Positions 2,722-61,720 of a stretch of DNA of 64,000 bases are shown one piece after another. This DNA is from Elusimicrobiota bacterium (GTDB lineage: Bacteria > Elusimicrobiota > Elusimicrobia > Elusimicrobiales > UBA9959). The stretch covers positions 2,775 to 66,774 of the forward strand of contig JACQYT010000015.1 in the NCBI GenBank assembly GCA_016208085.1, given 5' to 3'. The position numbers and the translations under genes are program-made. Numbering within the stretch: the stretch's first letter is position 1; the number at the start of each line of letters is the position of its first letter. A model generated the notes under the pieces. That model did no database searches. It was not told where the DNA came from and saw only the letters and a list, made by a program, of their open reading frames with translations.

Positions 2722-3534
2722 TTAAAAAAGCCTTGACGCGCCCCGGGTCAACTGCAAATACATGTCCAGTTCATTATCCCCGCCTCTTATGAACAGCCTG
2801 TCTATGGGTCCGGCTTCGCGTTGCCAGGGCCAGGGGGTTTTTCCCTGCCTGAAGCTGAAGTCAAAAGTATAGCCCGCTTTGAACACGCTCTCCCTTAAGG
2901 CCGGGTTGCCTGCGCCGGCGCCGTACGGATAGGCGAAAGCGCATATTTCGGTTCCCAGCGCGGCCTGAAGCTGTTTTCTGGATTCGGCGATTTCCCACGC
3001 GGCGTCCTCAAAGGGGAGCTTTTCAAGATCGGGGTGGTTCATGGTGTGGGAGCCGAGCTCTATCACGCCGCTGGAGAGCATTTTCCTGAGCATTTCCAGA
3101 TCGGCCATATTGATCCAGGGCTCGCCGGCGGGGTTATGCCACAGGTTGGCTTTTCCGATAGCGTTATACACCGCGAAAATATTGCCCCTGGCGTTCAGTT
3201 CTTTCAGGATCCTGTAAGCTTCGGCGTAATTATTCTCATAACCGTCGTCAAAAGTGATCAGGACCGCTTTTTCCGGGAGTTTTTTTCCGCCTTTATGCGC
3301 TTTCCTGAGGTCCGAAAAAAGCAGCGTGGTATAACCGTGGTTCAAAAGCCAGACGACCTGCGCGCGGAATTTTTCCGGGGTTACCCACAGGCTGCCGAGC
3401 CTGGAGCCGGCGGGGGCGCGGCCTATTTTGTGATAGACAAGGACCGGCAGGCCGGCCGCTTTTCTCCGCCACCAGGTCCAGCGGGCGCTCGCCGCCGCGG
3501 CGCCCAGAAAAACCGCCAGCTCAAGCATGCTCAT
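2722..3534 (-). CDS. Polysaccharide deacetylase (NodB homology domain)
   Basis: VLITFDDGYENNY and GSHTMNHPDL motifs; N-terminal TM helix. Confidence 0.8.
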   Translation of the reverse strand: MSMLELAVFLGAAAASARWTWWRRKAAGLPVLVYHKIGRAPAGSRLGSLWVTPEKFRAQVVWLLNHGYTTLLFSDLRKAHKGGKKLPEKAVLITFDDGYENNYAEAYRILKELNARGNIFAVYNAIGKANLWHNPAGEPWINMADLEMLRKMLSSGVIELGSHTMNHPDLEKLPFEDAAWEIAESRKQLQAALGTEICAFAYPYGAGAGNPALRESVFKAGYTFDFSFRQGKTPWPWQREAGPIDRLFIRGGDNELDMYLQLTRGASRLF

Positions 3535-5039
3535 GCTCGTTTCTCCCGCGATCTTTCAAGCAGTTCTTTCGCCGCGTCAAAGACCTTGTCCGGCGTTATC
3601 AGCCGCATGCACAGAAAATGCCCGCGGGGGCAGGAGGCGGAGCCGTGCAGCGCGCAGGGGCGGCAGGCCAGGTCCGCCTCAAGCACCGCGTTCCGTTCTC
3701 CGTAAGGGAAAAACCCCAGCTCTTTTGTGGTTGGCCCGAAGACGGCGGCGACCGGCACGCCGAAAGCCACGGCTATATGCATGGGGCCGGAATCATTGGT
3801 TATAAAAATTTTCAGCCTTTTAACGAGAGCCATCAACTCCTCTATTCCGGTTTTACCCGTCAGGTTAAGGCAGGTTCCAGGCCCGGCGGCGGCCTCTATT
3901 TGGGCGTTCCACGCGGCCTCGTCTTTTGCGCCCACCAGCAGGACGCGGGCGCCGTACGCGGCGGACAGCTTTTTTATAAGCCGGGCCCAATGCCGCGCCG
4001 GCCAGCGCTTGGTGGGCCAGACCGAGCCGGGGTTGGCGCCGATAAAAATGTCGGTCCCCGCTCCCTTCAGAGCGGCGGAGCTCTCGCGAAGCGGCGGGAA
4101 CCGGGTCTGCGCCGGGCCCGGGGTCAGCGGGAGCAGCAGGGTCAGATTACGTTCCAGGTCGTGTATCAGCCAGGAGAACGGGACCCTGTGCGTGAAAAAA
4201 AAACTCCCGGCGCTGGAGTCAAAACCGATGCGCACCGGTATCCCGGCAAGCCGGGCCAGCAGCGCGCTCCTGAACGACCGGTGCGGAACTATCGCGATGT
4301 CGAATTTTCTTCTCTTCAGTTCGCCGGCCAGCCTGCGGAACTCAGGCCAGAACGAGCCGGCCTCCCTTTTATTGTCCGTTATTATTTCGGCGGCAAGGCC
4401 GCAGGAGGCGAATAGCGCGGCCGTGTCGGGACGCGCGACCACGGTAATATCGGAGTCCGGCGCGGCTTTCCTTATTTTTGCAAGCAGCGGCAGCGTCAGG
4501 ACGCAGTCCCCCAGGAACGCGGTCTGCAGCAGGCAGATCCGCTTGCGACCTTGCGCGGAGACGGCCGGACCGGGCTCAAGGACCCAATCGCCCAGCAACG
4601 GCTCGCGGCAGACGACGGGCACGCCTATCTTCTCAAGGACCTGGAGGTACCGCTCAAGGGTGCGCTTTTCAAGCGCCGGGTTCGGCACCCTGAAATTGAC
4701 GAAGAGACGGCGCGCCAAAGAATCCTTTTTGTAGCGCGCTTTGACAGGTATTGCGGAACCCGCGCACAGCAGCAGGCTGCGGAGGTTGGCGTGGAGGTCC
4801 AGCAGGATATCGTACCGGCCGCGCTTTATCTCCCGAAGGGCTGAAAAAATCCCGGTGAAAGGCAGCGCCGCGGACACGAACGGGTTTTTCCGGACGGCGG
4901 CGGCGAACTGCGGCTTGACCAGCATGGTTATGCGCGCGGCGGGCCAGCGCTCCTTGAGATTCCTCAGAACCGGGGCCGTAAGTATGATGTCGCCCAGGGA
5001 GGACAGTCTTATTATAAGGATATCGGGAGCCGTTTCCAT
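3531..5039 (-). CDS. Glycosyltransferase family 9 with an extra N-terminal half-domain
   Basis: Two GT9 N-terminal signatures in one 502-aa ORF: ILIIRLSSLGDIILTAPVLRNLKERWP and ICLLQTAFLGDCVLTLPLLAKIRKAAP. C-terminal NDSGPMHIAVAFG. Confidence 0.8.
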   Translation of the reverse strand: METAPDILIIRLSSLGDIILTAPVLRNLKERWPAARITMLVKPQFAAAVRKNPFVSAALPFTGIFSALREIKRGRYDILLDLHANLRSLLLCAGSAIPVKARYKKDSLARRLFVNFRVPNPALEKRTLERYLQVLEKIGVPVVCREPLLGDWVLEPGPAVSAQGRKRICLLQTAFLGDCVLTLPLLAKIRKAAPDSDITVVARPDTAALFASCGLAAEIITDNKREAGSFWPEFRRLAGELKRRKFDIAIVPHRSFRSALLARLAGIPVRIGFDSSAGSFFFTHRVPFSWLIHDLERNLTLLLPLTPGPAQTRFPPLRESSAALKGAGTDIFIGANPGSVWPTKRWPARHWARLIKKLSAAYGARVLLVGAKDEAAWNAQIEAAAGPGTCLNLTGKTGIEELMALVKRLKIFITNDSGPMHIAVAFGVPVAAVFGPTTKELGFFPYGERNAVLEADLACRPCALHGSASCPRGHFLCMRLITPDKVFDAAKELLERSREKRA

Positions 5040-5110: not shown

Positions 5111-5259
5111 GCTATGCTGTACAGAATAAAAATTATATCATTTGTAGAACAGTAAAAAAGCAAGAGAGCCGGACAGCGAGAAAGCAAGAAAGTAAAAAAG
5201 TTTTTACTGTCACGCTCTCCGGCTGTCGCGCTGTCACGCTACGCCTGAAACGAGACTCT

Positions 5260-6669
5260 ATGAACGAAACCGCCGCCGAAGAAAAGCTGCCGCTGAAGGA
5301 AATAATGAGGATGCTCTTCAAAGCCTCCAGGGGCTTCTGGCTTGTCAATGTGGTTAATTTCGGCGACGGCATAGCCTATTTCGGCATGTTGAACCTGATG
5401 ACGCTTTTCCTGGGCCTCAAAGGCCTCGGCATGAGCGACGAGCTGACCGGCTGGAGCGTGTCGCTGTTCACGGGCCTGGTGACGCTGTTTATGTTCGGCG
5501 GGGGGTTCATTTCCGACCGCATCGGCGTAAGGCGCGCGCTCACTCTCTGCCTGGCGATGCTTCTGGGCGGCCGGCTTTTGCTGGTCCTGGCCCCCGGGCT
5601 CTCCGCCGCCGCGCCGGCAACATTCAGCCTGTTCGCAACCGAGATCAGCCTTTCGCCCTCTTTTATGCTGTGCTGGGCCGGACTGCTTGCAATGGCTTTC
5701 GGCGAAGGCGTCATACAACCCGCGCTTTACGCCGGGGTCAAGGAATATACCGATGCGCGGACCGCGACCATAAGCTACAGTCTGCTGTACGCGATAATGA
5801 ACCTGGGGATAGTAATGGAAAGCTTCGTCTCGCCCCTGATCCGCACCGACGGGCCTTTCATAAAAATCCGGGGACGGGAGATAATGGGGCTCGGGCTGGG
5901 CATACCCGGGGTCTTCTGGCTGTGCATAGCGGTAACGCTGCTGATGCTGCTGGTTCACACAGGCTTTTTTACCGCCAGAGTGGAAGCCCGCGACCGCGCG
6001 GCGGGGGACGCTCCGGTTACGGACGAAAAGCGCAGGACCCTGGCGGAAAAACTCAAGGGGCTGCCGTTCCTGGACGCCCGGTTCATGTTCTTTATCTTCG
6101 CTCTGCTGCCGGTGCGCACCCTTTTCGCGCATCAATGGCTGACCATACCCGACTACATCATGCGCTGTTTTCCGGCTTCGGTCGGGGCTAAGTACGAATG
6201 GATAACCGCTCTGAATCCCATTATCATCGTCATCTTCGTCCCGCTGATAGCCGCGCTCACGCGCAAGGTCAGCGTCGTGACCATGATGATAGCCGGCACC
6301 GCCCTCTCCGCCGCCACCACTTTTCTTCTGGTGCCCGGCCCGAACCTGACGGCCCTGCTCGCTTATGTGATCATCTTTTCGTTCGGAGAGGCCGTGTGGT
6401 CTTCCCGGTTCCTGGAATATGTGGCGGAGCTGGCGCCGGCGGGCCGGGTGGGAGCCTATATGGGCCTGGCCGGCATCCCCTGGTTCCTCGCCAAATTTAC
6501 CACCGGACTTTATTCCGGCAGGATGCTTGCCGTTTTTGTGCCGGCCTCCGGCCTCAAGGACAGCTCCACCCTGTGGCTCATCTACGCCCTTATCGCCTGC
6601 GCGACGCCGCTGACCCTGATCCTGGCCAGGCGGTGGCTGACCGCGCCGCTTTCCGCAACAAAAAGTTAA
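5260..6669 (+). CDS. MFS transporter (POT-like N-terminal motif)
   Basis: ORF 4741..6669. The first 173 codons are antisense to the GT9 gene. Real start is MNETAAEEK at 5260. Multiple TM helices; VNFGDGIAYFGM resembles the POT ExxERFxYYG box. Confidence 0.75.
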   Translation: MNETAAEEKLPLKEIMRMLFKASRGFWLVNVVNFGDGIAYFGMLNLMTLFLGLKGLGMSDELTGWSVSLFTGLVTLFMFGGGFISDRIGVRRALTLCLAMLLGGRLLLVLAPGLSAAAPATFSLFATEISLSPSFMLCWAGLLAMAFGEGVIQPALYAGVKEYTDARTATISYSLLYAIMNLGIVMESFVSPLIRTDGPFIKIRGREIMGLGLGIPGVFWLCIAVTLLMLLVHTGFFTARVEARDRAAGDAPVTDEKRRTLAEKLKGLPFLDARFMFFIFALLPVRTLFAHQWLTIPDYIMRCFPASVGAKYEWITALNPIIIVIFVPLIAALTRKVSVVTMMIAGTALSAATTFLLVPGPNLTALLAYVIIFSFGEAVWSSRFLEYVAELAPAGRVGAYMGLAGIPWFLAKFTTGLYSGRMLAVFVPASGLKDSSTLWLIYALIACATPLTLILARRWLTAPLSATKS

Positions 6670-6715: not shown

Positions 6716-7255
6716 ATGAGCAAACGGCGAAAGTTTGCGGTCTCCGCCATTGCCTGGGGGCTGGCTTTTTTGTCTTTTGCGGCGGTCAACGCCGTAATGA
6801 GTTCCAAACTCTACCGCATCCTCATAAGCGAGCTGGTATCAGCGGGCAACACCAGGCCCAAGACCGGCGCCGGCTACGTCCTTTTCGGCAGCACCGGGCA
6901 ACTGGGGTATGGCGCCGTTTCCGGCGGCAAATACTCCATAAACTGGGGAACCGTTAATTCCTCGCCTCCGTCCCGGGCCGATGTTTCCTCCGCGCACGCA
7001 TTCCCGAACCCATGCAGCTTTAAAGCCGGCTGCAACAGCGTCACTTTTACCGGCCTGACGCTGCAGGCTACGGTCAAGGTGTACACTATCTCCGGCGAGC
7101 TTGTGCGCACAATCGCCAAGAGCGGCAACACCGACCGCACGGAACCCTGGGACCTGAAAAATGCCGCCGGCAGACAGTTGGCAAGCGGCCTGTACCTGTA
7201 TCTTGTAGAGGGCAAAGGCGCTTTCAAAAAAGGAAAACTGGTGATAGTGCGGTGA
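6716..7255 (+). CDS. Small secreted protein with T9SS-type / FlgD-Ig-like C-terminal domain
   Basis: Signal peptide AIAWGLAFLSFAAVNA. C-terminus AFPNPCSF...VKVYTISGELVRTI...LASGLYLYLVEGKGAFKKGKLVIVR. GxYS motifs are shared with the 57655 protein. Confidence 0.75.
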   Translation: MSKRRKFAVSAIAWGLAFLSFAAVNAVMSSKLYRILISELVSAGNTRPKTGAGYVLFGSTGQLGYGAVSGGKYSINWGTVNSSPPSRADVSSAHAFPNPCSFKAGCNSVTFTGLTLQATVKVYTISGELVRTIAKSGNTDRTEPWDLKNAAGRQLASGLYLYLVEGKGAFKKGKLVIVR

Positions 7256-7307
7256 ACCCGGAAAATTTTAGAGGGGTAATCAAAATGAGGGTTAACAGGG
7301 AGACATT

Positions 7308-10300
7308 ATGAGAATATTTAAAAACCTTGCGCTGACGCTCGGCTTGCTGGGCGTTTTCAACCTTTCAGTTTCCGCCGGGGAAATAAAGCCCGGCGCGGTT
7401 TCCGGTTCAATAAACTACCAGGGCCGCCTTGAACGGGATAATGCGCCCGTTACGGGCATCGTCCACCTGACATTCAGGATTTACAACGCCGCCGAAGGGG
7501 GGACTCTGCGCTGGCCGACGCCGGCCTGTCCGAGCTCTGAAATAACGGCGACCGCCACCCAGGGCATTTTCAGCGCCTCTATAGCCCCGTGCTGGGAGGT
7601 TTTTTCCCTGGCGGAACAGTTGTATCTGGAAGTGCAGGTGGAAAGCGACGTGCTGTCTCCGAGGGAGCCCTTGAACAGCGTTGTTTACGCCATGGTGGCC
7701 AAAAAGCTCGAGGACGGCTCTTCCATTTCAGTGACCACGCTGGCCGCGTCTTACCAGGTGCTGCTGGCCACGGTTTCCGGCAATGTCGGCATAGGCAGCA
7801 TGGCCGCAGCTCCGGATAAAAAGCTGACGGTAAACGGCGGCATCAGGATTTTAAGCGACGGGTATTATTTTCCGGACGGCACGCTCCAGAACACCGCCGG
7901 CGTGGCCGGCGCGGGCAACCTTTCTAATCCTTCGGACGCCGTCGTCACCTCCGACTCGGATAATTCCGGGGGCGGCGACATCATACTGCAGATCTACAGC
8001 GCCGAGCGGGCGCGCGTGCTGGCCTCCAACGGCAACCTGGGCGTGGGCGCGGCGGCGCCGTCGGAGAGGCTTGAAGTCAACGGGAACCTCGCCAACACGG
8101 CCGGCACTTTCGCCATATATTCCCGCGACTATCTCGTGTCCCGGCCGAGGGACGCGTCCAACGCGGTCTTCAGGCTGATGCCGAGGGACGATAATTCCGC
8201 CGCTCCCAGCTCCATCTCCGCGCTGGAACTTTACACGCTGACGGACACTTCCACGGGGACGCCGGTCAATTATACGCGCGGCGTTATGATTATGACCGCC
8301 AACGGCCTGGAATTTTACCAGGAAAAAGGCGGCGCCGGCTCCGAGCTGCCGATACTTTTCAAGACCGGCGGCGCGGAGCGCATGAGGATCGTCACCGGCG
8401 GCAACGTCAGCGTAGGCGGGCTGCCCAACCCCACCGATAATTTCCAGGCGGCGGGCGATATTTCGGCCAACACGGGCGTGCGCGGCGCGCGGGTGTCCAT
8501 AGGCGATTATTCCACCTGGACCAACCTGCCCAACGAGATCCGTTCCGAAGCCGGCTACCATCTTCTTCTCCAGCAGACGAATAGTTACAATGTGGGCATC
8601 GGCACCGACAGCCCAAAAGAGAAGCTGCATGTGCGCGGCAGCGTGATGGCCGACTACGGCATAAGCGCCGCCACCGCGGCTTTTTCGGATGCGGTGACCG
8701 TGGGCGCCAATTTCACCGCCAACTCCGGCCAGGGCAGCGTAGTGAAACTTTCCTCCACGGTGATATACGGCACGCTGACGGTGTACGGCGCCGTGGGTTC
8801 CGATAAGGGCTGGCCCGCTTACCTGGCGTCCACCCAGACTTTCACGGGGCAGAACACCTTCGCCAGACAGGTGGCGGCTTTAAGCGATCTTACCGTCGCC
8901 AACCGCCTGGGCGTCGGCGCGGCGGGCTTTAGCTTCGCGCCTTCGGAGTATCTGCAGGTAGGCGACGGCCTGGTCGCCAACGACGACGCCCAGGCGTATC
9001 TGATGTCCGGCGCCGGGACAGGTAATTCCAAAATATATTTTTACCGCGGACCGACGGAGGCGGCGCGCCTTGAGACCCAGAACGGCAGTAACCTCGCTCT
9101 CGTGGCGGGCAACACCAAGTCGCTGGTGGACTCGACCTACTACAGGATCTACAACAGCGTGTTCTGGGTCTCCACCGGCACCAACAACGCCACGCCTGCT
9201 ATATTCGTAAGCTCGTGGATGGGCAACGTAGGCGTCGGGACCGCGGTGCTTGACCCCAACTGGAAGCTTACCGTCAGCGGGAACATTAGGATCTCAGGGC
9301 CCGCTTCCAACGGCATTATTTTTGCCGACGGCACCACGCTGACCAGCGCCAATCTCGGCGGCATTTCGGCGGGCGCCATCTCGCATAATGAGGACGCTAT
9401 AGTGCAGTCGGACGCCGATCTAAACGGTTCCGGCAGCGTCGTGCTGCGCGCGGGCGCGCTGGACGGGCTGGCGCTGAACACGGGCGGCAACGTGGGCGTA
9501 GGCACGCTGTACCCGGTTGCGCGGCTCAATGTAAGGGGCGGGGACCTGGTGCTGGGCACGCCCTACAATCCTTACGCTTCCGACAGCAAGGAAGATCTGA
9601 TATTGGGCGGCAATTTGGTGGTGGACGGCAGCATAGAGCAGCGCGCGGCTTCAATGGCCATTTTCAGCGGGCTGACCGTCACCAATAATGTCTATCTTTC
9701 CACGGTCGCGGCCGCCAGGACCGGCATAGGCACGGACAACCCGCAATATAAGCTGGACGTCGTCGGCGACGTCAACCTGTCCGGCGCGTTAATGAGCGGC
9801 GGTACGCAGAGAATGTCGGCTACCGGCGTTTTATCCAACACGACCTGGAACGGCGCCACGATAACGGTCCCTTACGGCGGGACGGGCGTAACCTCGCTTA
9901 CTTCCGGCGGCATCCTTTACGGCAACGGAACCGCGGCGATTGCGCCCACGGCCGTGCTCGCCAACGGGCAGCTGCTCATCGGCGACGGTTCCGGCGCCCC
10001 TACGCTGGCCACGCTTACCCCGACCGCCAACCAGGTGAACGTCACCAACGCCGCGGGCGCCATAACCCTTTCCCTGCCGCAGGATATAAATAGCGGGGCC
10101 AGCCCGGCATTCGCGGGGCTGACCGTTGGTTCGCTCACCGGCGTCATTAAAGGAGCTACTGGAGTCTTAAGCGCCATGACCGGCACGACAAACCAAATCA
10201 CCCGCTGGTCTGACGCCGATACAATCGGCGCAAGTTCAATTCTAACGGATGACAGCGCCAGGTTCACCGTCTCGGCCCCTGCCGACCTTACCGGCTCCAT

Positions 10301-11333
10301 AACAACCGCTTCCAGCGGCACTTTCAGGTTAACCGGCGCAAACCAATACAGCATAGAAACAAGCTCCGGCATAAAAGTCAACAACGGCTTAGTGGCTACC
10401 CCTGCTTTCAGGATGACCACCGGGGCAAACGCTGATTATGTGCTTGTTTCCGACGGCAGCGGTAATGCCAAATGGTCGGCGGACACAGCCGGCGCCGCAA
10501 CTTATATTCAGGCTACTGTTGCAAGCAACGATTATATCAGAGTTAAGGGCGGAGGATCAAGTAATGCGGGTTGGCTGGAAATAGCCACCGGCGATGACGG
10601 GACGGAGCCGATATATGTAAGGCAGTATAACACAGTTCCATCCATTGTCAACGAAGCCGTATTATTGGATGGCTCCGGAAACACTTCCTTTCCCGGCACC
10701 GTCACCGCCCCTACCTTCAGCGGCAACGCGACTTCAGTGGATGGTTTTAGCGTCAACACAGCCTACAATGATTTTACCGGCAGTGAAATTCCGGTGCGCC
10801 ACGCCAGCGGCTACCTATACAGCAACTGGTTTAATATGGTCGCCAATGTCGAGACCACCAACCCCGAGTATCTGGTGGGGGAATGGGGCGGGGATAAATT
10901 TCTGCGCTACGTAACCCCCGCCAATGTCACCGTCGGCAATGTCAGCGGCATCGTGGCGGTCGCCAACGGCGGCACCGGGGCAACTACCCTGACCGGTGTG
11001 GTGCGCGGCAACGGTACCAGCGCTTTTACCGCTTCCGCCATAGTCGATGCGGACGTGCCGGACACCATCACGCTCACCGACATTACCCAGATTACCAACC
11101 GCGCCATAAGTGACACCTCCGGCACGCTGGCGGTCGGCCGCGGCGGCACAGGGCAGTCGACGTTAACATCCGGTTACGTATTGGTTGGAAACGGCACTAC
11201 CGCCGTAAACCTGGTCGCCGGCCTGACAGTTGCGGCCTTTCAGGTCGTGGGCTCCACAATAAGTTCAACTTGTTATGATTTGACTTTTACCAATGGCGTT
11301 CTCACCGGAAAAACCACAGTAACTTGTAATTAG
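7308..11333 (+). CDS. 1341-aa secreted fibre protein (tail-fibre-like repeats and C-terminus)
   Basis: Signal peptide; INYQGRL N-terminal module. Eight copies of the G-N-V/L-G-I/V-G-T...KL-V-G motif. C-terminus has WLEIATGDDGTEPIYVRQY and GGTGATTLTG / GGTGQSTLTSG motifs typical of phage tail fibres. RBS agggaga before the ATG. Confidence 0.85.
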   Translation: MRIFKNLALTLGLLGVFNLSVSAGEIKPGAVSGSINYQGRLERDNAPVTGIVHLTFRIYNAAEGGTLRWPTPACPSSEITATATQGIFSASIAPCWEVFSLAEQLYLEVQVESDVLSPREPLNSVVYAMVAKKLEDGSSISVTTLAASYQVLLATVSGNVGIGSMAAAPDKKLTVNGGIRILSDGYYFPDGTLQNTAGVAGAGNLSNPSDAVVTSDSDNSGGGDIILQIYSAERARVLASNGNLGVGAAAPSERLEVNGNLANTAGTFAIYSRDYLVSRPRDASNAVFRLMPRDDNSAAPSSISALELYTLTDTSTGTPVNYTRGVMIMTANGLEFYQEKGGAGSELPILFKTGGAERMRIVTGGNVSVGGLPNPTDNFQAAGDISANTGVRGARVSIGDYSTWTNLPNEIRSEAGYHLLLQQTNSYNVGIGTDSPKEKLHVRGSVMADYGISAATAAFSDAVTVGANFTANSGQGSVVKLSSTVIYGTLTVYGAVGSDKGWPAYLASTQTFTGQNTFARQVAALSDLTVANRLGVGAAGFSFAPSEYLQVGDGLVANDDAQAYLMSGAGTGNSKIYFYRGPTEAARLETQNGSNLALVAGNTKSLVDSTYYRIYNSVFWVSTGTNNATPAIFVSSWMGNVGVGTAVLDPNWKLTVSGNIRISGPASNGIIFADGTTLTSANLGGISAGAISHNEDAIVQSDADLNGSGSVVLRAGALDGLALNTGGNVGVGTLYPVARLNVRGGDLVLGTPYNPYASDSKEDLILGGNLVVDGSIEQRAASMAIFSGLTVTNNVYLSTVAAARTGIGTDNPQYKLDVVGDVNLSGALMSGGTQRMSATGVLSNTTWNGATITVPYGGTGVTSLTSGGILYGNGTAAIAPTAVLANGQLLIGDGSGAPTLATLTPTANQVNVTNAAGAITLSLPQDINSGASPAFAGLTVGSLTGVIKGATGVLSAMTGTTNQITRWSDADTIGASSILTDDSARFTVSAPADLTGSITTASSGTFRLTGANQYSIETSSGIKVNNGLVATPAFRMTTGANADYVLVSDGSGNAKWSADTAGAATYIQATVASNDYIRVKGGGSSNAGWLEIATGDDGTEPIYVRQYNTVPSIVNEAVLLDGSGNTSFPGTVTAPTFSGNATSVDGFSVNTAYNDFTGSEIPVRHASGYLYSNWFNMVANVETTNPEYLVGEWGGDKFLRYVTPANVTVGNVSGIVAVANGGTGATTLTGVVRGNGTSAFTASAIVDADVPDTITLTDITQITNRAISDTSGTLAVGRGGTGQSTLTSGYVLVGNGTTAVNLVAGLTVAAFQVVGSTISSTCYDLTFTNGVLTGKTTVTCN

Positions 11334-11384
11334 GGGGTATAGGGGGTGTATAGGGGACGTTTCTCAATATCTCAATAACTTTGT

Positions 11385-11450
11385 ATGGAAACAAAATTCA
11401 GGAAAATTAGGGAAAATAGTAGGAAAATAGAGACAGACACCATTTATTAA
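11385..11450 (+). pseudogene. 5' stub of a RAYT (REP-associated tyrosine transposase) gene
   Basis: ATG GAA ACA AAA TTC AGG (METKFRK). The same 19 nt (tggaaacaaaattcaggaa) recur at 11791; the reading frame collapses after 21 codons. Confidence 0.45.
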
Positions 11451-11509
11451 TCTGGAAGAGGGTTACGATAAACCATTGGAGTTGACGATTCCGCTGGAGG
11501 TGGTCCAGG

Positions 11510-11689
11510 ATGAATAATAGCCGTTATCCAAAATCATTGGAAGAGGTATGGCGGTGGAAAGAAGCCGTGCATAGAGACATGAAAAACATGCCGCATATAA
11601 CGCGGAATATTTCTGCCCGTGCGAAAGCGGTCACGGAGCGGTTGAATCTGCGAAGGGTTTCATCTTCTTTTAATTCCGCGTCAAAATAA
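11510..11689 (+). CDS. 59-aa hypothetical protein (below the ORF-track cutoff)
   Basis: Own translation MNNSRYPKSLEEVWRWKEAVHRDMKNM...; GGAGGTGG RBS 8 nt upstream; AT-rich accessory patch. Confidence 0.3.
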   Translation: MNNSRYPKSLEEVWRWKEAVHRDMKNMPHITRNISARAKAVTERLNLRRVSSSFNSASK

Positions 11690-11790
11690 AGAATTGACGA
11701 GTTGAAGACAATTCTTATCCGGCATAAGCGGGAATTAAGAAACCGATTGTAACTACTGATATGAACGAGCCTGTCAAGTCCCCCAATCAT

Positions 11791-12011
11791 TTGGAAACAA
11801 AATTCAGGAAGAGTATCAGGCTGAAAAATTACGATTATTCCGTATTACAAAAATTGTAGCGGGCGGATTACCATCCGCCTTGAAAACGCCGCATAGCAAT
11901 GCGGCCGCAACAGATAAGGGAATATGGCAATGGAATTATTACGAACATGTGATACGAAATGAAAAAGCGTTATCAAAAATTGAATCGGGATGAGTTGGAT
12001 AATTGCGAATA
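11791..12011 (+). pseudogene. Decayed RAYT / IS200-like Y1 transposase remnant
   Basis: Frame A reads (M)ETKFRKSIRLKNYDYS, a typical RAYT N-terminus. A second frame reads GIWQWNYYEHVIRNEKAL, a typical RAYT C-terminal box. The catalytic core is missing and the frames are broken. Confidence 0.55.
11855..11912. repeat. REP element (TGTAGCGG family) inside the RAYT remnant
   Basis: tgtagcgggcggattaccatccgcc...gccgcatagcaatgcggccgcaaca; two inner hairpins closed by an outer stem. Confidence 0.7.
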
Positions 12012-12054
12012 ACCGGTGCAGCGGGCGGATTTTCGCCTTAGAGGAGACAAAAAT

Positions 12055-12408
12055 ATGGGTCATACATGGATTGATGTGCATATATCAAACACTGATAAAA
12101 CCAAGGCTAAAGGCGTGAAAGGATTGATAGACGCCGGCGCTACTTTGACTACCATACCAAGAGTTCTTGCTGATGAATTAGGCATTCAAACGTTTATGAG
12201 GGAACAAGTTGAAACCGGCGCGGGGAATATTGAAATAGACAAGGGCAGGATTATTATCACTATCGGCAGGAAAGAGGATATTCAAACAATCTGGATATCC
12301 GATATCATAGACAAAGTTTTAATAGGCCGCGTTACATTAGAGATGCTGGGCATTAAAGTGAATCCGGTAATCGACAAGATTGAGGAAACAACTTTAATGT
12401 TGTATTGA
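12055..12408 (+). CDS. Retropepsin-like (clan AA) aspartic protease
   Basis: GLIDAGATLTTIP contains the D-[TSA]-G active-site motif. Length about 117 aa. GAGGAG RBS before ATG 12055 (the ORF track starts at GTG 12016). Confidence 0.65.
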   Translation: MGHTWIDVHISNTDKTKAKGVKGLIDAGATLTTIPRVLADELGIQTFMREQVETGAGNIEIDKGRIIITIGRKEDIQTIWISDIIDKVLIGRVTLEMLGIKVNPVIDKIEETTLMLY

Positions 12409-12418
12409 GAAAATACCA

Positions 12419-13222
12419 TCACTTGCCGGAACCGGACGGGGCGGCCCATTTTTTCCAGGTTTTTTCGAACTGCTCCGCGCTCCCGAAGCCGTATGCGCTG
12501 AATAAGGCGCGCTCAACATCTTCCCCATCCCTCAATTGCCGGCAGAATTTTTCAAATTTAAACGGAGAATTAGCCTTTTTAAGAAAGCGGACGACGCTGT
12601 GAGCCTGAGAATAAAAATCCTGCACGGAATCGGGATCGGGAATTTTCTTCAGCTTTAAGAAAACCGCCGCAGGCAGCGGTTCGTTCACGTGAGGCCGGTA
12701 CGAAGACTTCACACGGCCAGCCGTCTCCTCCACCATCATTTCAGCCAGGCCTTCGTTCAGCCAGAGGGGGATGCGAGCGGGAGCCCGTTTAAAGAAACTC
12801 GCAAAATACAGGTGCGTCAGTTCATGGGCGACGGTTCGCGGGCAGAAAGGCTCATAGACGGCCAGGGACCATTGCGCGCCGCGCCGGCCGCAGTTATAAA
12901 CTATTCCGCCGGACCATGCCGGAGGCTTGAACCGGCCTTCAAGATAGCTGTTCCGGTCCTTATAAAGATAAACCTCCACCTTTTCCGTGTCCATCCACGA
13001 ACTTAAGGTCCACAATTCCTTGCGCAAACAGCGGAAGATCTTTTCCATCTCCGCGCCGATCCACTTAGCGGACCTGGTATTTTCCTGATGGATCAGGAAA
13101 TGGGACGTCCACCGGGTGTTCCAGCCGCTTTCCCCCGCGACCAGCAGGGCGGGGAGCAAAGCTAACCCGAAAAATGCGATTGGCCGGGGCAAGAAGGGGA
13201 TTTTTTTGCCGCATTTTTTCAT
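12419..13222 (-). CDS. Peptidase MA-like zinc metallopeptidase (HExxH)
   Basis: VAHELTHLYF plus WLNEGLAEMM. Start taken at MKKCGKKIPFL (signal/TM), to avoid overlap with waaA. Confidence 0.7.
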   Translation of the reverse strand: MKKCGKKIPFLPRPIAFFGLALLPALLVAGESGWNTRWTSHFLIHQENTRSAKWIGAEMEKIFRCLRKELWTLSSWMDTEKVEVYLYKDRNSYLEGRFKPPAWSGGIVYNCGRRGAQWSLAVYEPFCPRTVAHELTHLYFASFFKRAPARIPLWLNEGLAEMMVEETAGRVKSSYRPHVNEPLPAAVFLKLKKIPDPDSVQDFYSQAHSVVRFLKKANSPFKFEKFCRQLRDGEDVERALFSAYGFGSAEQFEKTWKKWAAPSGSGK

Positions 13223-13278
13223 CCGACATCCGCCTAAGGCGGACGGTTTTAACTGTAGCTTTTGGGCTGATAAACCCA

Positions 13279-14622
13279 TTATTTGAGCCATTTTTCTATT
13301 ATTGCTATCGTTTTTGCTGTGGCGCCCTGGAGGTTTTCAAGGGCTTTTCTGGCGTTGCCGCCGGCGGCCTTCCTGAGATCGGCGTCTTTCAGCAGGACCT
13401 CCAGCCTGGCGCGCAGTTCCTCTCCGTCTTCAACCATGAAGCCGCCCCGGACTTTTAAAAGCATTTCGGCGGCTTCCCTGGCGCTCTGCACATGCGGCCC
13501 GAACAGGACAGGTTTTGAGAAAGAAGCCGGCTCAAGCAGGTTGTGACCGCCCACGTTGACCAGCGTCCCGCCCACAAAAACGGCGGCGGAAAGAGGATAG
13601 AAATTTATAAGCCGGCCTATTTCATCTACCAGCAGGCAGTCGGGGCTGCCCCCACCCTTGCCCTCCCCCGCAAGGGGGGAGGAATATTGTGACATCCCTG
13701 CTTCGCTCCAGACTATAAAGGGGATGTTTTTAAGGGTGAGCAGCGCCCGCGCCTCCCCGGCCCGCTCGGGGTGGCGGGGGACAAGGACCAGTTTTAAGCC
13801 GGGAGCGGTTTCTTTGAGCGCCAGGTAGGAGTCCAGTATCGCTTCTTCTTCGCCCCGGTGCGTGCTGGCCGCGGTCCAGATAGTTTTTCCGGTCCAGGAT
13901 ATTTTTTCCAGAAAGGCGTTTATCCCTTCAAGCTTGTCCGGATTGGCGTCCGGCAGGTCGTATTTTATGTTTCCGGTGCAGACGACCTTTGAGCCGTCTT
14001 TCAGGAGTCCGGCGTAGTTGGCGGCGTCCGGGACGCTGGCCGCGAGGATCTTTTCCACGCCCGAGAATATTTTGGCCGTCAGCGGAGACAGTGCCCTGTA
14101 GAGGACGAGCGTTTTTTGCGACAGGCGCCCGTTTATTATGCAGATCTTGACGCCTGCCGCGGCCGCGCACACGAGCAGATTGGGCCAGAGCTCCGTTTCG
14201 GCTATCAGCAGAACCTTCGGCCCGGCCCTGTTTATGAACCGTTTCATGAACGGATAAAAATCAAGCGGCAGGAGCCTGGCGTGCGGGGTGAGTTTAAGCG
14301 CCTCCGTGCGGCCGGCCCGGGTGGAGGTGGTTATCATAATGGGAACCGCCGGGAATTTTTGCTTTATGATTTCCGCCAGTTTTTTAACGGCTTTCGCCTC
14401 TCCCACGGACGCCGCGTGAAGCCAGATCGGCTGCCGCGGCAGAGCCGCCCCGGAAAATGCGAACCTTTCGCCCAGCTCGGAAAGAAAACTTTTCAGCAAG
14501 TTCCGGCGCGGCGAAAAAAAGAAAAAAAGAAGATAAAAAACGGCTATAAACGGGGCCAGCAGATTGTAAAGAAAAAAAAGAATCGTTCCCATAAAAATTT
14601 TCGCGGCAAAAATTTTTACCAT
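13279..14622 (-). CDS. waaA: 3-deoxy-D-manno-octulosonic acid transferase (WaaA/KdtA)
   Basis: IWLHAASVGEAKAV and LLVDEIGRL motifs. The first 10 codons (MVKIFAAKIF) are encoded by a palindromic element, so the start may be M11 at 14592. Confidence 0.85.
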   Translation of the reverse strand: MVKIFAAKIFMGTILFFLYNLLAPFIAVFYLLFFFFSPRRNLLKSFLSELGERFAFSGAALPRQPIWLHAASVGEAKAVKKLAEIIKQKFPAVPIMITTSTRAGRTEALKLTPHARLLPLDFYPFMKRFINRAGPKVLLIAETELWPNLLVCAAAAGVKICIINGRLSQKTLVLYRALSPLTAKIFSGVEKILAASVPDAANYAGLLKDGSKVVCTGNIKYDLPDANPDKLEGINAFLEKISWTGKTIWTAASTHRGEEEAILDSYLALKETAPGLKLVLVPRHPERAGEARALLTLKNIPFIVWSEAGMSQYSSPLAGEGKGGGSPDCLLVDEIGRLINFYPLSAAVFVGGTLVNVGGHNLLEPASFSKPVLFGPHVQSAREAAEMLLKVRGGFMVEDGEELRARLEVLLKDADLRKAAGGNARKALENLQGATAKTIAIIEKWLK

Positions 14623-26013: not shown

Positions 26014-27120
26014 ATGCAGACGAACGCGCTAGCTGTGGTTCTTTTTATGGCAGGGCGCCTTGGCGCCCAGGAACTATCCAATCATGACCTGGGGCGCAAG
26101 GCGCTTGAAACAGCGGTGACGTATACCAAAAGCGCGGATTCCGATGTCCGAACTATGGCGGCCGAGGTCCTGGGCCAGACAGGCAATAAGTCCGCCGCGG
26201 GTCTCCTGAAAAAACTGCTCGCGGATCCGGACAAGCATACGCGCATCGCGGCGGCCGAGTCGCTGTGGAAACTGGGAGACACGGGCGGCTTTCAGGCCAT
26301 TTACGCCATTATCAACGATGTGCCGGCGCAGGGCCCCGTGGGAAACACCGCGCTGGTCGAGCTTAAAATAATTTCCCAGAACAAAATACGCGAGCATGCT
26401 ATAGAGGCGTACGCGCGGATAAAAGGGGAAAAAGCTTCGGAGCTTCTTTTCAAGCTTAAGAACGATACTTACGGTTCCATCCGGGATGTGGCAGCCAGGG
26501 AACTTTCCGGGCTTGGTTACTCCGACGAGATGGCGCAGTTCCTGGACGCGCTGGAAAGCGACGACGAAGCGATAAGGTATGCGAGCGTAAAAGTGTTCGC
26601 TAAGATCTGCAATTCCGACGCCGTGGAACCGCTTGGCGCCCTGCTTATGAAGGAGATGTCCAGCCGCGTCAGAATTGCGGCGCTTGACGCCCTGAAATGC
26701 ATGAGCGCCAGGAAGAATGCGCTGCCCCAACTGCTGAAGCTCGCGGATGACGCGAACCCCTCCATCCAATTCAAAGCGGTAGGGGTTTTAAGCGCCATAC
26801 GGGATAAAAAGGCTTTTGAAAAATTGGCGGGAATATACGGCGCGACGACCGACTTGAATCTGAAAGTCGCGACGCTCAAAGGGCTTATGAGCGGAGGCCG
26901 GGCGCCGGACAAGGACCTGCTTGACCTCGCTTTCGCCTCCGCCAATCCGGACGTTAAAACGGAAGCCCTTAAAGTGCTGGAAAACATGGCTGAAGCCGAG
27001 GTTAAGCCATACCTGCGGGATGCTTTAAGCGATTCCAGCGTCAATGTGAGACTGGCCGCGGCCCAGCAGATCCTGAAACGGTTCGCCAAGCAACAGGCGC
27101 AAAGCAGCGGCGCAAAGTGA
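26014..27120 (+). CDS. HEAT-repeat protein (PBS-lyase-type repeats)
   Basis: Repeated D..VR..AA..LG...A...L..LL.D units throughout the 368-aa ORF. Confidence 0.7.
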   Translation: MQTNALAVVLFMAGRLGAQELSNHDLGRKALETAVTYTKSADSDVRTMAAEVLGQTGNKSAAGLLKKLLADPDKHTRIAAAESLWKLGDTGGFQAIYAIINDVPAQGPVGNTALVELKIISQNKIREHAIEAYARIKGEKASELLFKLKNDTYGSIRDVAARELSGLGYSDEMAQFLDALESDDEAIRYASVKVFAKICNSDAVEPLGALLMKEMSSRVRIAALDALKCMSARKNALPQLLKLADDANPSIQFKAVGVLSAIRDKKAFEKLAGIYGATTDLNLKVATLKGLMSGGRAPDKDLLDLAFASANPDVKTEALKVLENMAEAEVKPYLRDALSDSSVNVRLAAAQQILKRFAKQQAQSSGAK

Positions 27121-27197
27121 CAGGGAAAAGGCTGAAGGATAAGCTTAAGGCTGAAGGGCATGAGGAGAAAAGAAAAGTATTTAAGGTGAATACTTTT

Positions 27198-30100
27198 ATG
27201 AAGACTTTAAAGGCGGATAACTTGTCTATTGCGCAGCGGCCGGCCGCGTCCTTGCAGATTTTAAATATAAAAAAACCGCTTTGGGTCCTGCTCTTTGTTT
27301 TTGCCTCTACCCTCTACCCTCTCCCCTCTGCCTTCTCCCCTGCTTTTGCGGCCGGGCCGCGCAATAAAAACGCGCGCAGAATCTCGCCGCTGTCCGATTC
27401 GCTCCGGAAAGTCGGCAAAACCCCCGATCGCGCCGCCCGGGAAGCTTTCCGTAAATTCGTTTCAAAAACAGGCAATTCGCCCTGGCGCGTGCGCTATAGC
27501 CCGAAAACCGCCCTGCCCGAAGCCGTGGTGGGCGGCAAAACCGGCAAATATCCGGGCGGACCCCAGGCCGCGGCCCTGGCTTTCTTAAACGACAATAAGG
27601 ACCTGTTCAAAGTGGACGTCTCCCAGCTCAAGCCGGCGTTCTCCAGGACCTTTCTGGGCGTGACCCACCTGCAGTATTCCCAGTTCTACAATTCCATACC
27701 TGTTGAGTTCGCTTATGTCAGGGTCCACGTTACCGCCTCCGGCGAAGTGACAGGCTGCCAGTCTAAATTTGAGCCGGATATAAATATCGCCGTACTGCCG
27801 TCCATTCCGGCTGATTACGCCGCCGGGATCGCTTCAGGCGACTCCGGCTTTAAGGCCAGGGCGCATAAACCGGAATTGGTCATATTTCCGGATGCCGACG
27901 CGGGCGGCGCCTTGAAACTGGCCTGGAAACTAAAGGTCAGGGCTGCGGATGCGGCCAGCGGCGTCTGGATCTATTACGTGGACGCCTCAAACGGCGGCAT
28001 TCTTTTTAAATATAACGACCTGCGCTATGTCTGCTCGGATAACACAAAATCCACCGGCACAGTTTCCGGCACGGTCTATGACATTTCGCCCTGGCCTGTC
28101 GGCGTAAGCAATAACGCCCCCTATTGGACCAAGCCGGTCTTAAGGCCCATAACCGATCAGTATGTCTGGATAGGAAGCTATCTAGACAAGACCATCACCA
28201 GGCCCCTGAACGCGACGAGCGCCGAATATTGCGGCGATCTGATCGGCAAGACCGGCAAGGCGTTCGCCTCGCTTAAAGGCCCTTATTTCGCCGTTACCAA
28301 TTTCAGGGGCCAGAGCGCTCATTTCGACAACGGCGGCGGAGTCTGGAAGGAGAGCCCTGTATCAAAACAAAGCCCGCATCCGTATGAAAATTCCTATACG
28401 TATCCTCCCTATACCGTGACTATTCCCGATACCTGGACGGCCGACGGAGATACTTTTGCCAAGGCGATGCCGCGCTTCGCCGCTTCCGTCTCCGACCCGT
28501 TCCAGGTGGGGGCTATGGATATTGAAGGCACGATAACCGACTGGGATGTGCTTACCATCAAGAACGCGGCGGGCAATATAGCGGGAAACTATACAGGTAA
28601 AAGAACCAAGCCGTTTTACGGCGCGGCGGTTGAAAGCCCTGAATACAGCGTTAATCTCAAAACCGATGAAACCGGCGTCTATAACGGCTTTTCCATAGAC
28701 AGCTCAAGATACCTGGTACTGACCGATAATCCGCCCGGCGAAAACAATCTCACCGGCTCAATCGTCTGGTCCACCACGACCGCGGGGATCAATATGGACA
28801 CGAGCGCAGGCGTGGAAAACGCGCTGGACGAAGTAAACGCTTTCTACCATTTAACCAAAGCCCGCGATTATTTCGGCACTGTCAATAAAGACCCGAATAA
28901 CGGCGGCGCCGCGGCGGCCGACCTTTTAAAACAGGTGCCAGTGATGGTGCACGCGCACGGCACCGCGGACAATCTCTGCGCGCCCGGCAGCGCCGGCGGC
29001 GGGGATTGCGTCGGCGGGATGATGAACGCCTGGTACGACGCGGAAGGCGACAACCTCGTCTTCGGCGACGGCCCTATGGACGAATACGGCAATTACCGCT
29101 CTTTCGCGCTGGACGGCACCATCGTCCGCCATGAATACACCCACCTGGCAGTCAACCGAATCTATCCTGTCATCAATTTCGGGGAATTCGGGGCTATTTC
29201 CGAGGCGCTGGCGGATTATTTTTCCCTCGCGTCTTTCCGGGCCGGCGGAGCCGATCTGGATATTATCGGTAATTTCCTCGGCTCCGGATACCGCGATTTA
29301 TCAGGCGGCGCAGGCATAAAGAAAATGCCGGGGGATTGGACGGGAGAAGTGCACGACGACAGCCTGATCCTGTCCCAGGCCTTATGGAGGCTGAAAAACA
29401 GCACGCCGACGACCACCACGGACCTCGGGAACTTCTCCGCTTCAATCTATTTTCCGAATATGCCCCGGTCCGACGTGTTCGTTTATACCGCGCTGTTCTA
29501 TTTTCCGGATAATTTCGCCAATTTCTATGACGCCATGATCGAGGCCTGCAAACAGCTGCCCGGCAGCGGCTGCGACGCGGCCATGCAGAACAAGATAACC
29601 CTCGCTTTTTCGTCGCATGCCATAGCGGGCATACAGGCCGGGGGCGACGCCTTCGAGGGGAACAACGGCCCCGAATGGGCCACGGATATAAGCACGCTGT
29701 CTTCTCTTTCAGCCACCATTGCTCCCGTCGGAGACCTGGATTATTATTCAATACCGCTTGCGGCCGGAAATTTCACCGCCCGCCTGGACCTGCCCGCGAG
29801 CAGCGCTTACCTCTACCAGGCCTACTCCCTGTTCCTTTTTGATAATTTACGCAATTACATAACGCAATACGAGCCCGTGATCTACGGAGGCGGCGCCTGC
29901 CGCGATACCGGCCCCTGCTATACGGAGGCGGCCGGCGTTACGCTCAACTATAATGTCGCCGCGGCGGGCCGCTATTACCTGGTGGTCGCGGGTTCTCTTA
30001 ATCAATGGGGCGGCAATTCCCAGGCCAGCTCCCAGGTTCCGTACAGGCTGAACCTTTCCTATACGCCCAAAGGTTCCGCGAACGCGGCGATAGCCGCCGC

Positions 30101-30764
30101 CGTTTACGATAACGACACGATAAGTTTTACCGTGCCGTATCTTAAAGCCGCGATGGAGCTTCACCCGTCTTCCACGACCCCGGACATCCCGCCGGGGGTG
30201 GAAACGGTGTTTCAATACGCCCAGCTGCGCGATCATAACTACGTTCCGCTGGCCCTGGCCAGGACGGATACCGGCAGTTATCTTGAAGTGGACCTCAGCA
30301 GCCTGAGATACGACGATAAGGTTGATAACCGCGAGGTACTCAAAGGCAGCGTAAGACTTAAACCGGGTTTTGCCAGCCGCTATCCGGGAGTGGGAACGGT
30401 CTATCTTGAGATATTCGGCCGCAATCATATGGGCAGGGTCATGTCAATGGGCGTTTCTAACGCCATAAATCTTTCCACTAATAAATCCGCCGCGACGGCT
30501 TACAATAACATCATAACGGGCGCCGGCTCACGGGCGATAATAAAATACGACGTGCTGACGGCAGGAACCCTGTCCATAAAAATATATACCGCTGCCGGCA
30601 CGCTGGTAAAAACAGTTTATGACGGCCCCGTGCCGGCGGGCAAAGGCACCGTAGACTGGGATGGAACCAACAGCAAAGGCTCCAAAGCGGCCAGCGGCAT
30701 CTATTTCCTGAAGGTATCCGGCGCGGGCCTCAATACGGTGGATAAGATAGCGGTGGTTAGGTAG
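27198..30764 (+). CDS. Secreted thermolysin-like (M4-type) zinc metalloprotease with propeptide, PPC-like domain and T9SS-type CTD
   Basis: HEYTHL...GAISEALADYF aligns with thermolysin HELTH...GAINEAISDIF. FTP/PepSY-like N-terminal region; DLDYYSIPLAAGNFTARL PPC-like. C-terminus LSIKIYTAAGTLVKTV...ASGIYFLKV...KIAVVR. Start taken at MKTLKADN (27198) within ORF 27117..30764. Confidence 0.8.
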   Translation: MKTLKADNLSIAQRPAASLQILNIKKPLWVLLFVFASTLYPLPSAFSPAFAAGPRNKNARRISPLSDSLRKVGKTPDRAAREAFRKFVSKTGNSPWRVRYSPKTALPEAVVGGKTGKYPGGPQAAALAFLNDNKDLFKVDVSQLKPAFSRTFLGVTHLQYSQFYNSIPVEFAYVRVHVTASGEVTGCQSKFEPDINIAVLPSIPADYAAGIASGDSGFKARAHKPELVIFPDADAGGALKLAWKLKVRAADAASGVWIYYVDASNGGILFKYNDLRYVCSDNTKSTGTVSGTVYDISPWPVGVSNNAPYWTKPVLRPITDQYVWIGSYLDKTITRPLNATSAEYCGDLIGKTGKAFASLKGPYFAVTNFRGQSAHFDNGGGVWKESPVSKQSPHPYENSYTYPPYTVTIPDTWTADGDTFAKAMPRFAASVSDPFQVGAMDIEGTITDWDVLTIKNAAGNIAGNYTGKRTKPFYGAAVESPEYSVNLKTDETGVYNGFSIDSSRYLVLTDNPPGENNLTGSIVWSTTTAGINMDTSAGVENALDEVNAFYHLTKARDYFGTVNKDPNNGGAAAADLLKQVPVMVHAHGTADNLCAPGSAGGGDCVGGMMNAWYDAEGDNLVFGDGPMDEYGNYRSFALDGTIVRHEYTHLAVNRIYPVINFGEFGAISEALADYFSLASFRAGGADLDIIGNFLGSGYRDLSGGAGIKKMPGDWTGEVHDDSLILSQALWRLKNSTPTTTTDLGNFSASIYFPNMPRSDVFVYTALFYFPDNFANFYDAMIEACKQLPGSGCDAAMQNKITLAFSSHAIAGIQAGGDAFEGNNGPEWATDISTLSSLSATIAPVGDLDYYSIPLAAGNFTARLDLPASSAYLYQAYSLFLFDNLRNYITQYEPVIYGGGACRDTGPCYTEAAGVTLNYNVAAAGRYYLVVAGSLNQWGGNSQASSQVPYRLNLSYTPKGSANAAIAAAVYDNDTISFTVPYLKAAMELHPSSTTPDIPPGVETVFQYAQLRDHNYVPLALARTDTGSYLEVDLSSLRYDDKVDNREVLKGSVRLKPGFASRYPGVGTVYLEIFGRNHMGRVMSMGVSNAINLSTNKSAATAYNNIITGAGSRAIIKYDVLTAGTLSIKIYTAAGTLVKTVYDGPVPAGKGTVDWDGTNSKGSKAASGIYFLKVSGAGLNTVDKIAVVR

Positions 30765-30906
30765 GGTAGAAGGGAAAAGGTAGAGGGGAGAGGAAGAAAG
30801 AGTTGGCGGATTTATGCATATTTCCAATTATAAAAGGGAACATATTCTTGTCCCGGCATTTCTGCTGGTTTTTACCCTCTCCTTTCTAACCTCTACCCTC
30901 TACCCT
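30762..30906 (+). repeat. Class A word hairpin spanning the protease stop and the PorV-like start
   Basis: G-arm 30762-30797 begins with the TAG stop. The loop holds ATG 30814. C-arm 30873-30906 encodes FTLSFLTSTLYP of the signal peptide. Confidence 0.7.
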
Positions 30907-50904: not shown

Positions 50905-50931
50905 TTTATGTCGGAACGCTGGATAGCCCGA

Positions 50932-53551: not shown

Positions 53552-53559
53552 CATGATAG

Positions 53560-53568
53560 TGGTATACT
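53560..53568 (+). promoter_or_regulatory. Extended -10 promoter element TGGTATACT
   Basis: TG-n-TATACT, 20 nt upstream of ATG 53588; no SD in the short leader. Confidence 0.45.
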
Positions 53569-53587
53569 TTTTAGCAAGCAAACCGCA

Positions 53588-61707: not shown

Positions 61708-61720
61708 GAGGAGACCGGAT

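Follow-up and report, generated by a model that had tools for sequence, protein, structure and literature searches.

Two adjacent genes in a 64,000-nucleotide stretch of the Elusimicrobiota contig JACQYT010000015.1 (the window, that is, the whole stretch of DNA analysed) encode a small protein with a predicted C-terminal sorting domain (CTD) and, directly downstream, a large fibre. The 179-aa and 1341-aa open reading frames (ORFs) are present as an earlier note on this DNA had described them. [quoted passage not shown] The interpretation that we favour, with about even confidence, is that the small CTD protein acts as an adaptor, docked on a PorQ/PorV-like barrel, and keeps this fibre attached to the outer membrane. 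The identity of the fibre and the linkage of the genes are documented below; the anchoring step is one that we infer. MAT fibres are of an already known kind. New here are the CTD protein that always accompanies the fibre, as its putative adaptor, and the association with PorV/PorQ-family genes; the earlier note had missed these genes, as it had the relationship to the prey-binding MAT fibres of Bdellovibrio.

A locus scan with one genome per species returned 57 loci, ~50 of them from Elusimicrobia. The fibre has ~95 full-length homologues at 37–65% identity, all annotated as hypothetical, and every homologue with a named source comes from an Elusimicrobia metagenome-assembled genome. Throughout the loci with enough upstream sequence, the gene order was hepT (minus strand), an optional MFS transporter gene, the adaptor gene, the fibre gene and waaA (minus strand). 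The adaptor gene lay directly 5′ of the fibre gene in every Elusimicrobia locus of this kind, with a gap of at most ~60 nt and, in some loci, a slight overlap. The upstream MFS transporter named in the earlier note matched MFS_1; its gene occupies a fixed position in ~10 of the ~50 related loci and is missing from the others, a presence/absence polymorphism. Further flanks of the syntenic loci hold lpxK, kdsB, secDF, tgt, queA and ruvAB. Mean pairwise distances for the adaptor and the fibre base domain were 0.34–0.375, which makes the two about as well conserved as lipopolysaccharide enzymes (0.33 for hepT), and adaptor and fibre distances correlated with those of hepT and waaA (r 0.62–0.78). 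This correlation argues for vertical inheritance of the pair and indicates that it is a phylum-wide form. The description of the pair as a minimal version of a second cassette in the window, headed by the CTD protein gene at 57655, is thus not supported: it is the pair that represents the inherited, phylum-wide form, and the 74 relatives of the small protein, 124–212 aa throughout, make up a tight family of their own.

The relationship of the fibre to MAT proteins emerged at the level of the family. A profile built from 37 fibre-family members matched just four PDB sequences, all of them Bdellovibrio MAT fibres: Bd2133 (E 1.1e-14), two constructs of Bd1334 (E 1.8e-9 and 5.3e-6) and Bd3182 (E 1.5e-4). 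The alignments fall on ERMRI..GNVGIGT..P..KL.V.G units, which line up with the beta-helix units of those proteins. A PDB search with the single fibre sequence gave no match, so that the MAT fibres were reached only by the family profile. When an AlphaFold2 (AF2) monomer model of fibre residues 1–1200 was compared to the PDB with Foldseek, the top 11 matches were all Bdellovibrio MAT, and T4 gp34 appeared further down. The monomer model is confident only in the N-terminal domain (N-domain) and in patches of the shaft; the mean predicted local distance difference test score (pLDDT) of the shaft is 59.8, as expected for an obligate trimer, and the fibre would presumably form one. The strict GNVGIGT..KL.V.G pattern occurs in six units, where shuffled sequences gave a mean of 0.0005. 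With two units of looser fit (all eight at residues 157, 241, 363, 426, 531, 638, 726 and 803), the count comes to the eight repeats given in the earlier note. Fibre residues 50–900 are common to 84–101 of 103 homologues. Beyond residue 1050 only ~20 of the 103 align, and the tip is therefore variable. Pfam matched no family on the fibre and 36 homologues, and NCBIfam gave no match on the whole fibre.

The N-domain, directly behind the signal peptide, is predicted as a beta-sandwich followed by a helix (AF2 pLDDT 81–94 for residues 31–125). As the earlier note had it, this module recurs at the N-terminus of the second fibre, encoded at 62201 (30% identity over 126 aa, E 2e-11). With a profile of the domain, the number of representative proteins detected was 92,506 at E ≤1e-3, falling to 59,979 when E ≤1e-10 was required, and the domain almost always starts 20–45 residues from the protein start, right behind the signal peptide. 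Planctomycetota, Aquimonas and Verrucomicrobia (Akkermansia muciniphila among them) carry it on fibres whose C-terminal parts differ greatly. The top representative proteins are all named hypothetical, and the Pfam copy used yielded no match to the domain. A homologue search with the profile gave short fragments only and was uninformative on taxonomy. The NCBIfam model Bdello_MAT_N (NF053851) matches 17 of 22 N-domain relatives, with a best E of 4e-12, and is the sole family that those relatives match consistently. By this sequence comparison, the tie of the window N-domain to the MAT N-domain is a transitive one, running through its relatives; in its place behind the signal peptide and in its predicted beta-rich fold, the window domain does agree with the MAT N-domain. 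Two of the Akkermansia/Verrucomicrobia N-domain fibres (L061, 7911–9878; L064, 7938–9779) also share a conserved C-terminal block, ...GSVV.IDE..PGKLK.S...D..VAGIISGAGGV.PG...LVLVLVTLQ, which had no Pfam match.

The tip contains a phage long-tail-fibre-like module, GGTG motifs and a two-cysteine terminal knob, and several classes of small cysteine-containing knob occur across the family. The phage-like character of the fibre end, already seen from the sequence in the earlier note, was borne out by tblastn: residues 971–1168 match the long or L-shaped tail fibres of Klebsiella and E. coli T4-like phages (~40% identity over 94 aa, E ~2e-5). Residues 609–837 resemble the distal tail fibre of Thermus phage phiFa (E 3e-10). 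Among the predicted viral structures of BFVD, the AF2 model of the fibre had 164 matches at E <1e-3, mostly cyanophage tail-fibre-like and S74-domain proteins. Over its whole length the fibre had no match to a phage protein, the IMG/VR scan returned three weak partial matches only and PHROGs gave a single weak match (E 0.0019). The Peptidase_S74 domain was absent among the 37 family members, so the tip is of a non-S74 type. BLAST clustering of the tips was uninformative, as shared short modules link all of them.

The local likeness to phage tail fibres and the BFVD matches could be taken to mean that the fibre is a remnant of a prophage, a tailocin or another phage-derived element, with the small ORF as its tail-fibre assembly chaperone. 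We consider this extremely improbable. The earlier statement that the pair does not lie in a prophage held throughout: the flanks are LPS-core and housekeeping genes (LPS, lipopolysaccharide), and none of the ~50 syntenic loci has phage structural genes within 10 kb, which excludes such a remnant. The IMG/VR matches are weak and partial, no phage match spans the fibre, and the pair is vertically inherited. The small protein is moreover exported, encoded upstream and CTD-bearing, whereas a tail-fibre chaperone stays in the cytoplasm and its gene normally follows that of the fibre.

The small protein consists of a signal peptide (residues ~1–27), a conserved N-part (~28–87) with GG.Y[ST][LV] motifs and a CTD (88–179) resembling those of type A cargo of T9SS, the type IX secretion system, with the C-terminal end KGKLVIVR. 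TIGR04183 scored 29.7 bits (cut-off 23) on residues 96–177 of 179, and the matches to the models of PorZ and PorU are confined to the CTD. The AF2 model, built on 51 sequences, shows a beta-sandwich with pLDDT >90 at residues 85–179. Its best solved folds in Foldseek are PorZ (5m11, E 5.7e-7) and PorU (6za2, E 1.5e-5); further matches are the NucA CTD as it occurs in the SprA complex (8glk_D) and the mirolase CTD. The profile of the small-protein family matched the PorZ sequence at E 1.6e-6, and several family members carry the NCBI name 'T9SS type A sorting domain-containing protein'. Sequence and predicted fold thus show a Sec-exported protein with a T9SS type-A CTD most like those of PorZ and PorU. 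A K-x-x-[VI]-[VI]-R tail ends three window proteins, namely the small protein, the second CTD protein at 57655 and a secreted protein at 27117..30764. Residues 33–79 have pLDDT <50 although they are among the best-conserved stretches of the family; segments that take up their fold on a partner typically behave in this way.

The earlier note had likened the small protein to the 57655 protein with its Ig-like middle removed. The likeness stands for the CTD, which aligned in BLASTP (32% identity over 106 aa, E 1e-12) and, with the small-protein family, in hhalign (E 6e-18, CTD only). It fails for the N-parts, which neither method aligned, and the 57655 protein without its middle is therefore not the small protein; the two have the CTD and a short motif in common. 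The GxYS resemblance is real at the level of that motif: the window proteins, with 17,083 residues in all, contain G.Y[ST][LVIA] at four sites, and three of these lie in the first 80 residues of the 6716 and 57655 proteins. A separate candidate, the proposed tip pilin PamT (NF058579) of the newly described Pam pilus of the candidate phyla radiation (CPR), scored 13–20 bits against a cut-off of 240 in three CTD proteins and was judged non-specific. These weak matches are consistently placed (window 6716–7255 and 57655–59064; L052 4978–5517). According to the paper on the Pam pilus, the surroundings of the pam operon include an MFS transporter and a tail-fibre-like gene as well, an odd parallel that is probably non-specific.

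Barrel genes of the PorV/PorQ family supply the other half of the proposed anchor. Two such genes in the window score above the cut-off of NCBIfam, both of them immediately behind the gene of a CTD protein, and a CTD protein followed by its own barrel looks like a general rule in the source genome (Table 1). In the second cassette, the order is the CTD protein at 57655, the barrel at 59174, a TPR gene and the fibre at 62201. The apparent stop of the 62201 ORF at 63688 is due to an assembly collapse, in which 122 nt were lost between 63509 and 63510; contigs from all four groundwater runs carry the extra 122 bases, which restore the frame, and the product is one long fibre with NIGIGTT..AKLD repeats of ~60 aa. 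The pairing of a CTD protein with an INYQG N-domain fibre, pointed out in the earlier note, is thus a real and recurring arrangement. Among the fibre loci, L052 has diverged the most; there, the adaptor–fibre pair adjoins a divergently oriented PorV/PorQ gene (110 bits), and the context is dxs/ispA, not LPS. At L074, a 177-aa adaptor homologue (hhalign E 2e-33, full length including the N-part) is followed by a PorV/PorQ gene (168.6 bits) and then by a 975-aa N-domain fibre. A CTD protein and an N-domain fibre therefore recur with a PorV/PorQ gene in three independent contexts: 57655–62201, L052 and L074. A metagenome scan with the PorV/PorQ-like protein gave one 1.4-kb contig, and exact look-ups of the second-cassette proteins gave short contigs or nothing.

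These linkages bear on a different fate for the small protein, which we regard as rather unlikely. It could be T9SS cargo whose CTD is cut off and whose ~60-aa N-part is joined covalently to anionic LPS by a PorU-like sortase, the N-part then being a docking peptide for the fibre base instead of part of a barrel-bound adaptor. The CTD is indeed type A, ~50 genomes place the locus among the LPS-core genes hepT, waaA, lpxK and kdsB, and type-A cargo usually has its CTD cleaved and becomes attached to anionic LPS (PMC5562754). Yet the CTD most resembles those of PorZ and PorU, which stay uncleaved, the L052 and L074 pairs lie outside an LPS context and beside a PorV/PorQ gene, and no PorU-like sortase was seen in the small parts of the genomes that are visible.

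The fibre is built as a Sec signal peptide, a conserved base domain of ~110 aa, a beta-helix shaft and a swappable phage-like tip, the last most likely binding a glycan or protein exposed by other cells or particles. In the adaptor model that we favour, the adaptor would retain its CTD and dock through it on a PorQ/PorV-family barrel as PorZ does on PorQ, and its N-part, which is not predicted to fold alone, would fold onto the base domain of the fibre. The adaptor would in this way tie the N-terminal end of the fibre to the outer membrane and leave the C-terminal tip free and outward. Adaptor and fibre residues 50–900 are conserved while the tip varies, and the adaptor would therefore act on the constant end of the fibre. 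Retention of the CTD and the route across the outer membrane are likewise steps that we infer. More tentatively, the small protein may be a detachable adaptor of ~180 aa whose CTD plugs into a PorQ/PorV-like barrel and whose short N-part clamps the base of a trimeric fibre.

The fibre has a Sec signal, and neither a CTD nor an autotransporter barrel was detected in it, nor any further signal recognisable as one for export across the outer membrane. The small protein might for this reason be an export or assembly helper that binds the fibre base in the periplasm, provides the sorting signal in trans and is then released; with the functional tip at its C-terminus, the fibre could not bear a C-terminal sorting signal of its own. 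The T9SS moves folded proteins, and the adaptor partners the fibre's conserved end, both of which suit such a helper. To our knowledge, however, piggy-back export through the T9SS has no precedent, the presence of the translocon in these genomes is only presumed and the recurrent linkage to PorQ-like barrels suits anchoring at least equally. We judge the helper role improbable.

Several observations weigh against anchoring by the small protein. Pfam Por_Secre_tail (PF18962) scores 17.7 on the small protein, below its gathering threshold of 27, and the window N-domain itself reaches 13.1 bits (E 0.063) with Bdello_MAT_N, for which the cut-off is 60. N-domain fibres in other phyla (L060–L066, L075 and L076) have no such adaptor nearby. 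Across ~50 genomes, no PorV/PorQ gene lies within 8–10 kb of the main pair at the LPS locus. Besides the PorV/PorQ family, no part of the T9SS translocon and motor (SprA/Sov, PorK/L/M/N, PorU, PorT) was seen in the window or in the ~20-kb stretches of its relatives. The T9SS has been reported solely from Bacteroidetes/Chlorobi relatives (PMC5562754), and a literature search found no paper linking it to Elusimicrobia. In a mirror-tree comparison, the partial distance correlation between adaptor and fibre was 0.26–0.45, not above the within-protein values of 0.25 and 0.43; co-evolution is therefore not demonstrated, and the comparison is not decisive.

This weak co-evolution signal would also suit two mere neighbours, the small protein being an independent minor surface protein kept adjacent to the fibre gene through shared transcription. 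We hold that to be quite improbable: the adjacency persists over 30–70% sequence divergence and in at least three genomic contexts, a second, non-orthologous CTD protein is paired with a fibre in the same window and the conserved N-part, which does not fold by itself in the model, needs a partner.

Table 1 Features of the window
Feature	Position	Strand	Remarks
Small CTD protein gene (putative adaptor)	6716..7255	+	ORF of 179 aa
Fibre gene	7308..11333	+	ORF of 1341 aa; starts 52 nt downstream of the adaptor gene
Fibre N-domain	7398..7727	+	Residues ~31–140; INYQGRLE...LSPREPL...AKKLEDG
Fibre shaft	7755..9800	+	Residues ~150–830; eight GNVGIGT..P..KL.V.G units
Variable C-terminal tip	10005..11330	+	Residues ~900–1341
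Heptosyltransferase gene hepT	3531..5039	-	Two-domain, Glyco_transf_9; conserved upstream neighbour, divergent; synteny
MFS transporter gene	5239..6669	+	Between hepT and the adaptor gene; optional; MFS_1 57.5 bits
Kdo transferase gene waaA	13279..14622	-	Glycos_transf_N; conserved downstream neighbour, convergent; synteny
AT-rich insertion	11334..12418	.	Between the fibre gene and waaA
REP-like 23-mer GTAGCGGGCGGATTNCCATCCGC	11856..11878		Within the AT-rich insertion
RAYT C-terminal remnant GIWQWNYYEHVIRNEKALSKI	11880..11993		Within the AT-rich insertion; abuts the REP-like 23-mer
Retropepsin-like aspartyl protease ORF	12016..12408		Within the AT-rich insertion
Secreted CTD protein	27117..30764		1215 aa; fungalysin/thermolysin propeptide motif; C-terminal FlgD_ig/CTD domain
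Second PorV/PorQ-family barrel gene	30814..31998		104 bits; directly after the 1215-aa CTD protein; no fibre there
Second CTD protein	57655..59064	+	469 aa; Big_5 middle; CTD ends TGKLVIIR; heads the second cassette
PorV/PorQ-family outer-membrane barrel gene	59174..60313	+	NF033709, 139.4 bits (cut-off 90)
Second fibre gene	62201..>64000	+	N-domain as in the 7308 fibre; NIGIGTT..AKLD repeats; runs off the window end

The spacer downstream of the fibre gene had been called an AT-rich RAYT graveyard. It is AT-rich (GC 0.41 for 11334–12420, compared to 0.56 for the window) but holds one RAYT remnant only, and most related loci are without it. Between the fibre gene and waaA there is also a gene for a Peptidase_MA_2 protein (12419..13291, minus strand), found at the same site among related loci only in the closest relative (L010). 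The REP-like 23-mer GTAGCGGGCGGATTNCCATCCGC has two copies in the window (11856–11878 and 62092–62114), where none is expected by chance, and from the second copy it is 87 nt downstream to the second fibre gene. In the metagenome contigs, bases 62122–62170 have a many-fold higher depth, so this short element is multi-copy. Elsewhere in the window (50908–54970) lie two alanine/glutamate-rich repetitive proteins of 692 aa and 460 aa with long near-identical segments in common; at the N-terminus of the latter, GYF_2 matches below threshold. The ORF at 52892..53551 duplicates the C-terminus of the 460-aa protein, and the region may be another collapsed or shifted repeat. Window sequence was found solely in groundwater metagenome DNA, and no RNA runs containing it were found.

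The description of MAT-type fibres dates only from 2024, and the discoverers stated the question of cell attachment to be open (PMC10769870). Here, a MAT-type fibre is present as a single core-genome copy in an uncultured phylum and always with a small partner, which makes the partner a testable candidate for the missing anchor. The base domain is among the commonest N-terminal domains of bacterial surface proteins, yet it was unmatched in the Pfam copy used. If the adaptor model is correct, it would give the first identified anchor for an N-domain fibre family of >90,000 representative clusters. The observations also place T9SS-type sorting domains and PorV/PorQ barrels in Elusimicrobia, beyond the lineages with a known T9SS; under the adaptor model, CTD and PorV/PorQ sorting modules would work outside Bacteroidota-related phyla, possibly without a full T9SS.

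Among known systems, the MAT fibres of Bdellovibrio bacteriovorus (Bd2133, Bd1334, Bd3182 and Bd2439) are like the window fibre in having a signal peptide and a conserved beta-rich N-terminal domain of ~110–130 aa (PMC10769870), a long beta-helix shaft with V-G-x-G..P...L loops, a variable C-terminal tip related to phage receptor-binding proteins and a size of ~1000–1400 aa. The MAT paper defines the family by such an N-domain, a beta-helix shaft and a variable tip, and gives the surface element bound by the N-domain as not known (PMC10769870). The MAT capping-loop motif V-G-G/N-pi-x-x-P-x-x-x-L has its counterpart in the eight GNVGIGT..P..KL units of the window shaft. The two differ in that Elusimicrobia are, as far as known, not predators, in that one core-genome copy at a fixed locus stands against 21 paralogues in Bdellovibrio and in that the window fibre lacks the S74 chaperone-protease domain and is always preceded by the small CTD protein.

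For the adaptor, the comparison is to the PorZ–PorQ and PorU–PorV pairs of Porphyromonas gingivalis, whose PorZ and PorU CTDs are its closest relatives in sequence and predicted fold. In that species the CTDs of PorZ and PorU are retained, and PorQ and PorV keep the two proteins at the surface (PMC5562754). The adaptor, unlike them, has neither the PorZ beta-propeller nor the PorU sortase body, just an N-part of ~60 aa, and its host phylum lies outside the Bacteroidota-related phyla. In type-B systems of Bacteroidota such as SprB–SprF, a surface filament or adhesin gene for type-B CTD cargo likewise stands beside the gene for its own outer-membrane anchor, which is PorP/SprF-like. The CTD in the window is instead type A and resides on a separate small protein, not on the filament, and its barrel belongs to PorV/PorQ and not to PorP/SprF. 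The long tail fibres of phages (fibres like T4 gp34/gp37, T5 pb1 and the phiFa distal fibre) share local modules and the predicted shaft architecture with the window fibre, which differs from them in its Sec signal peptide, its cellular base domain, a neighbourhood free of virion genes and its vertical chromosomal inheritance.

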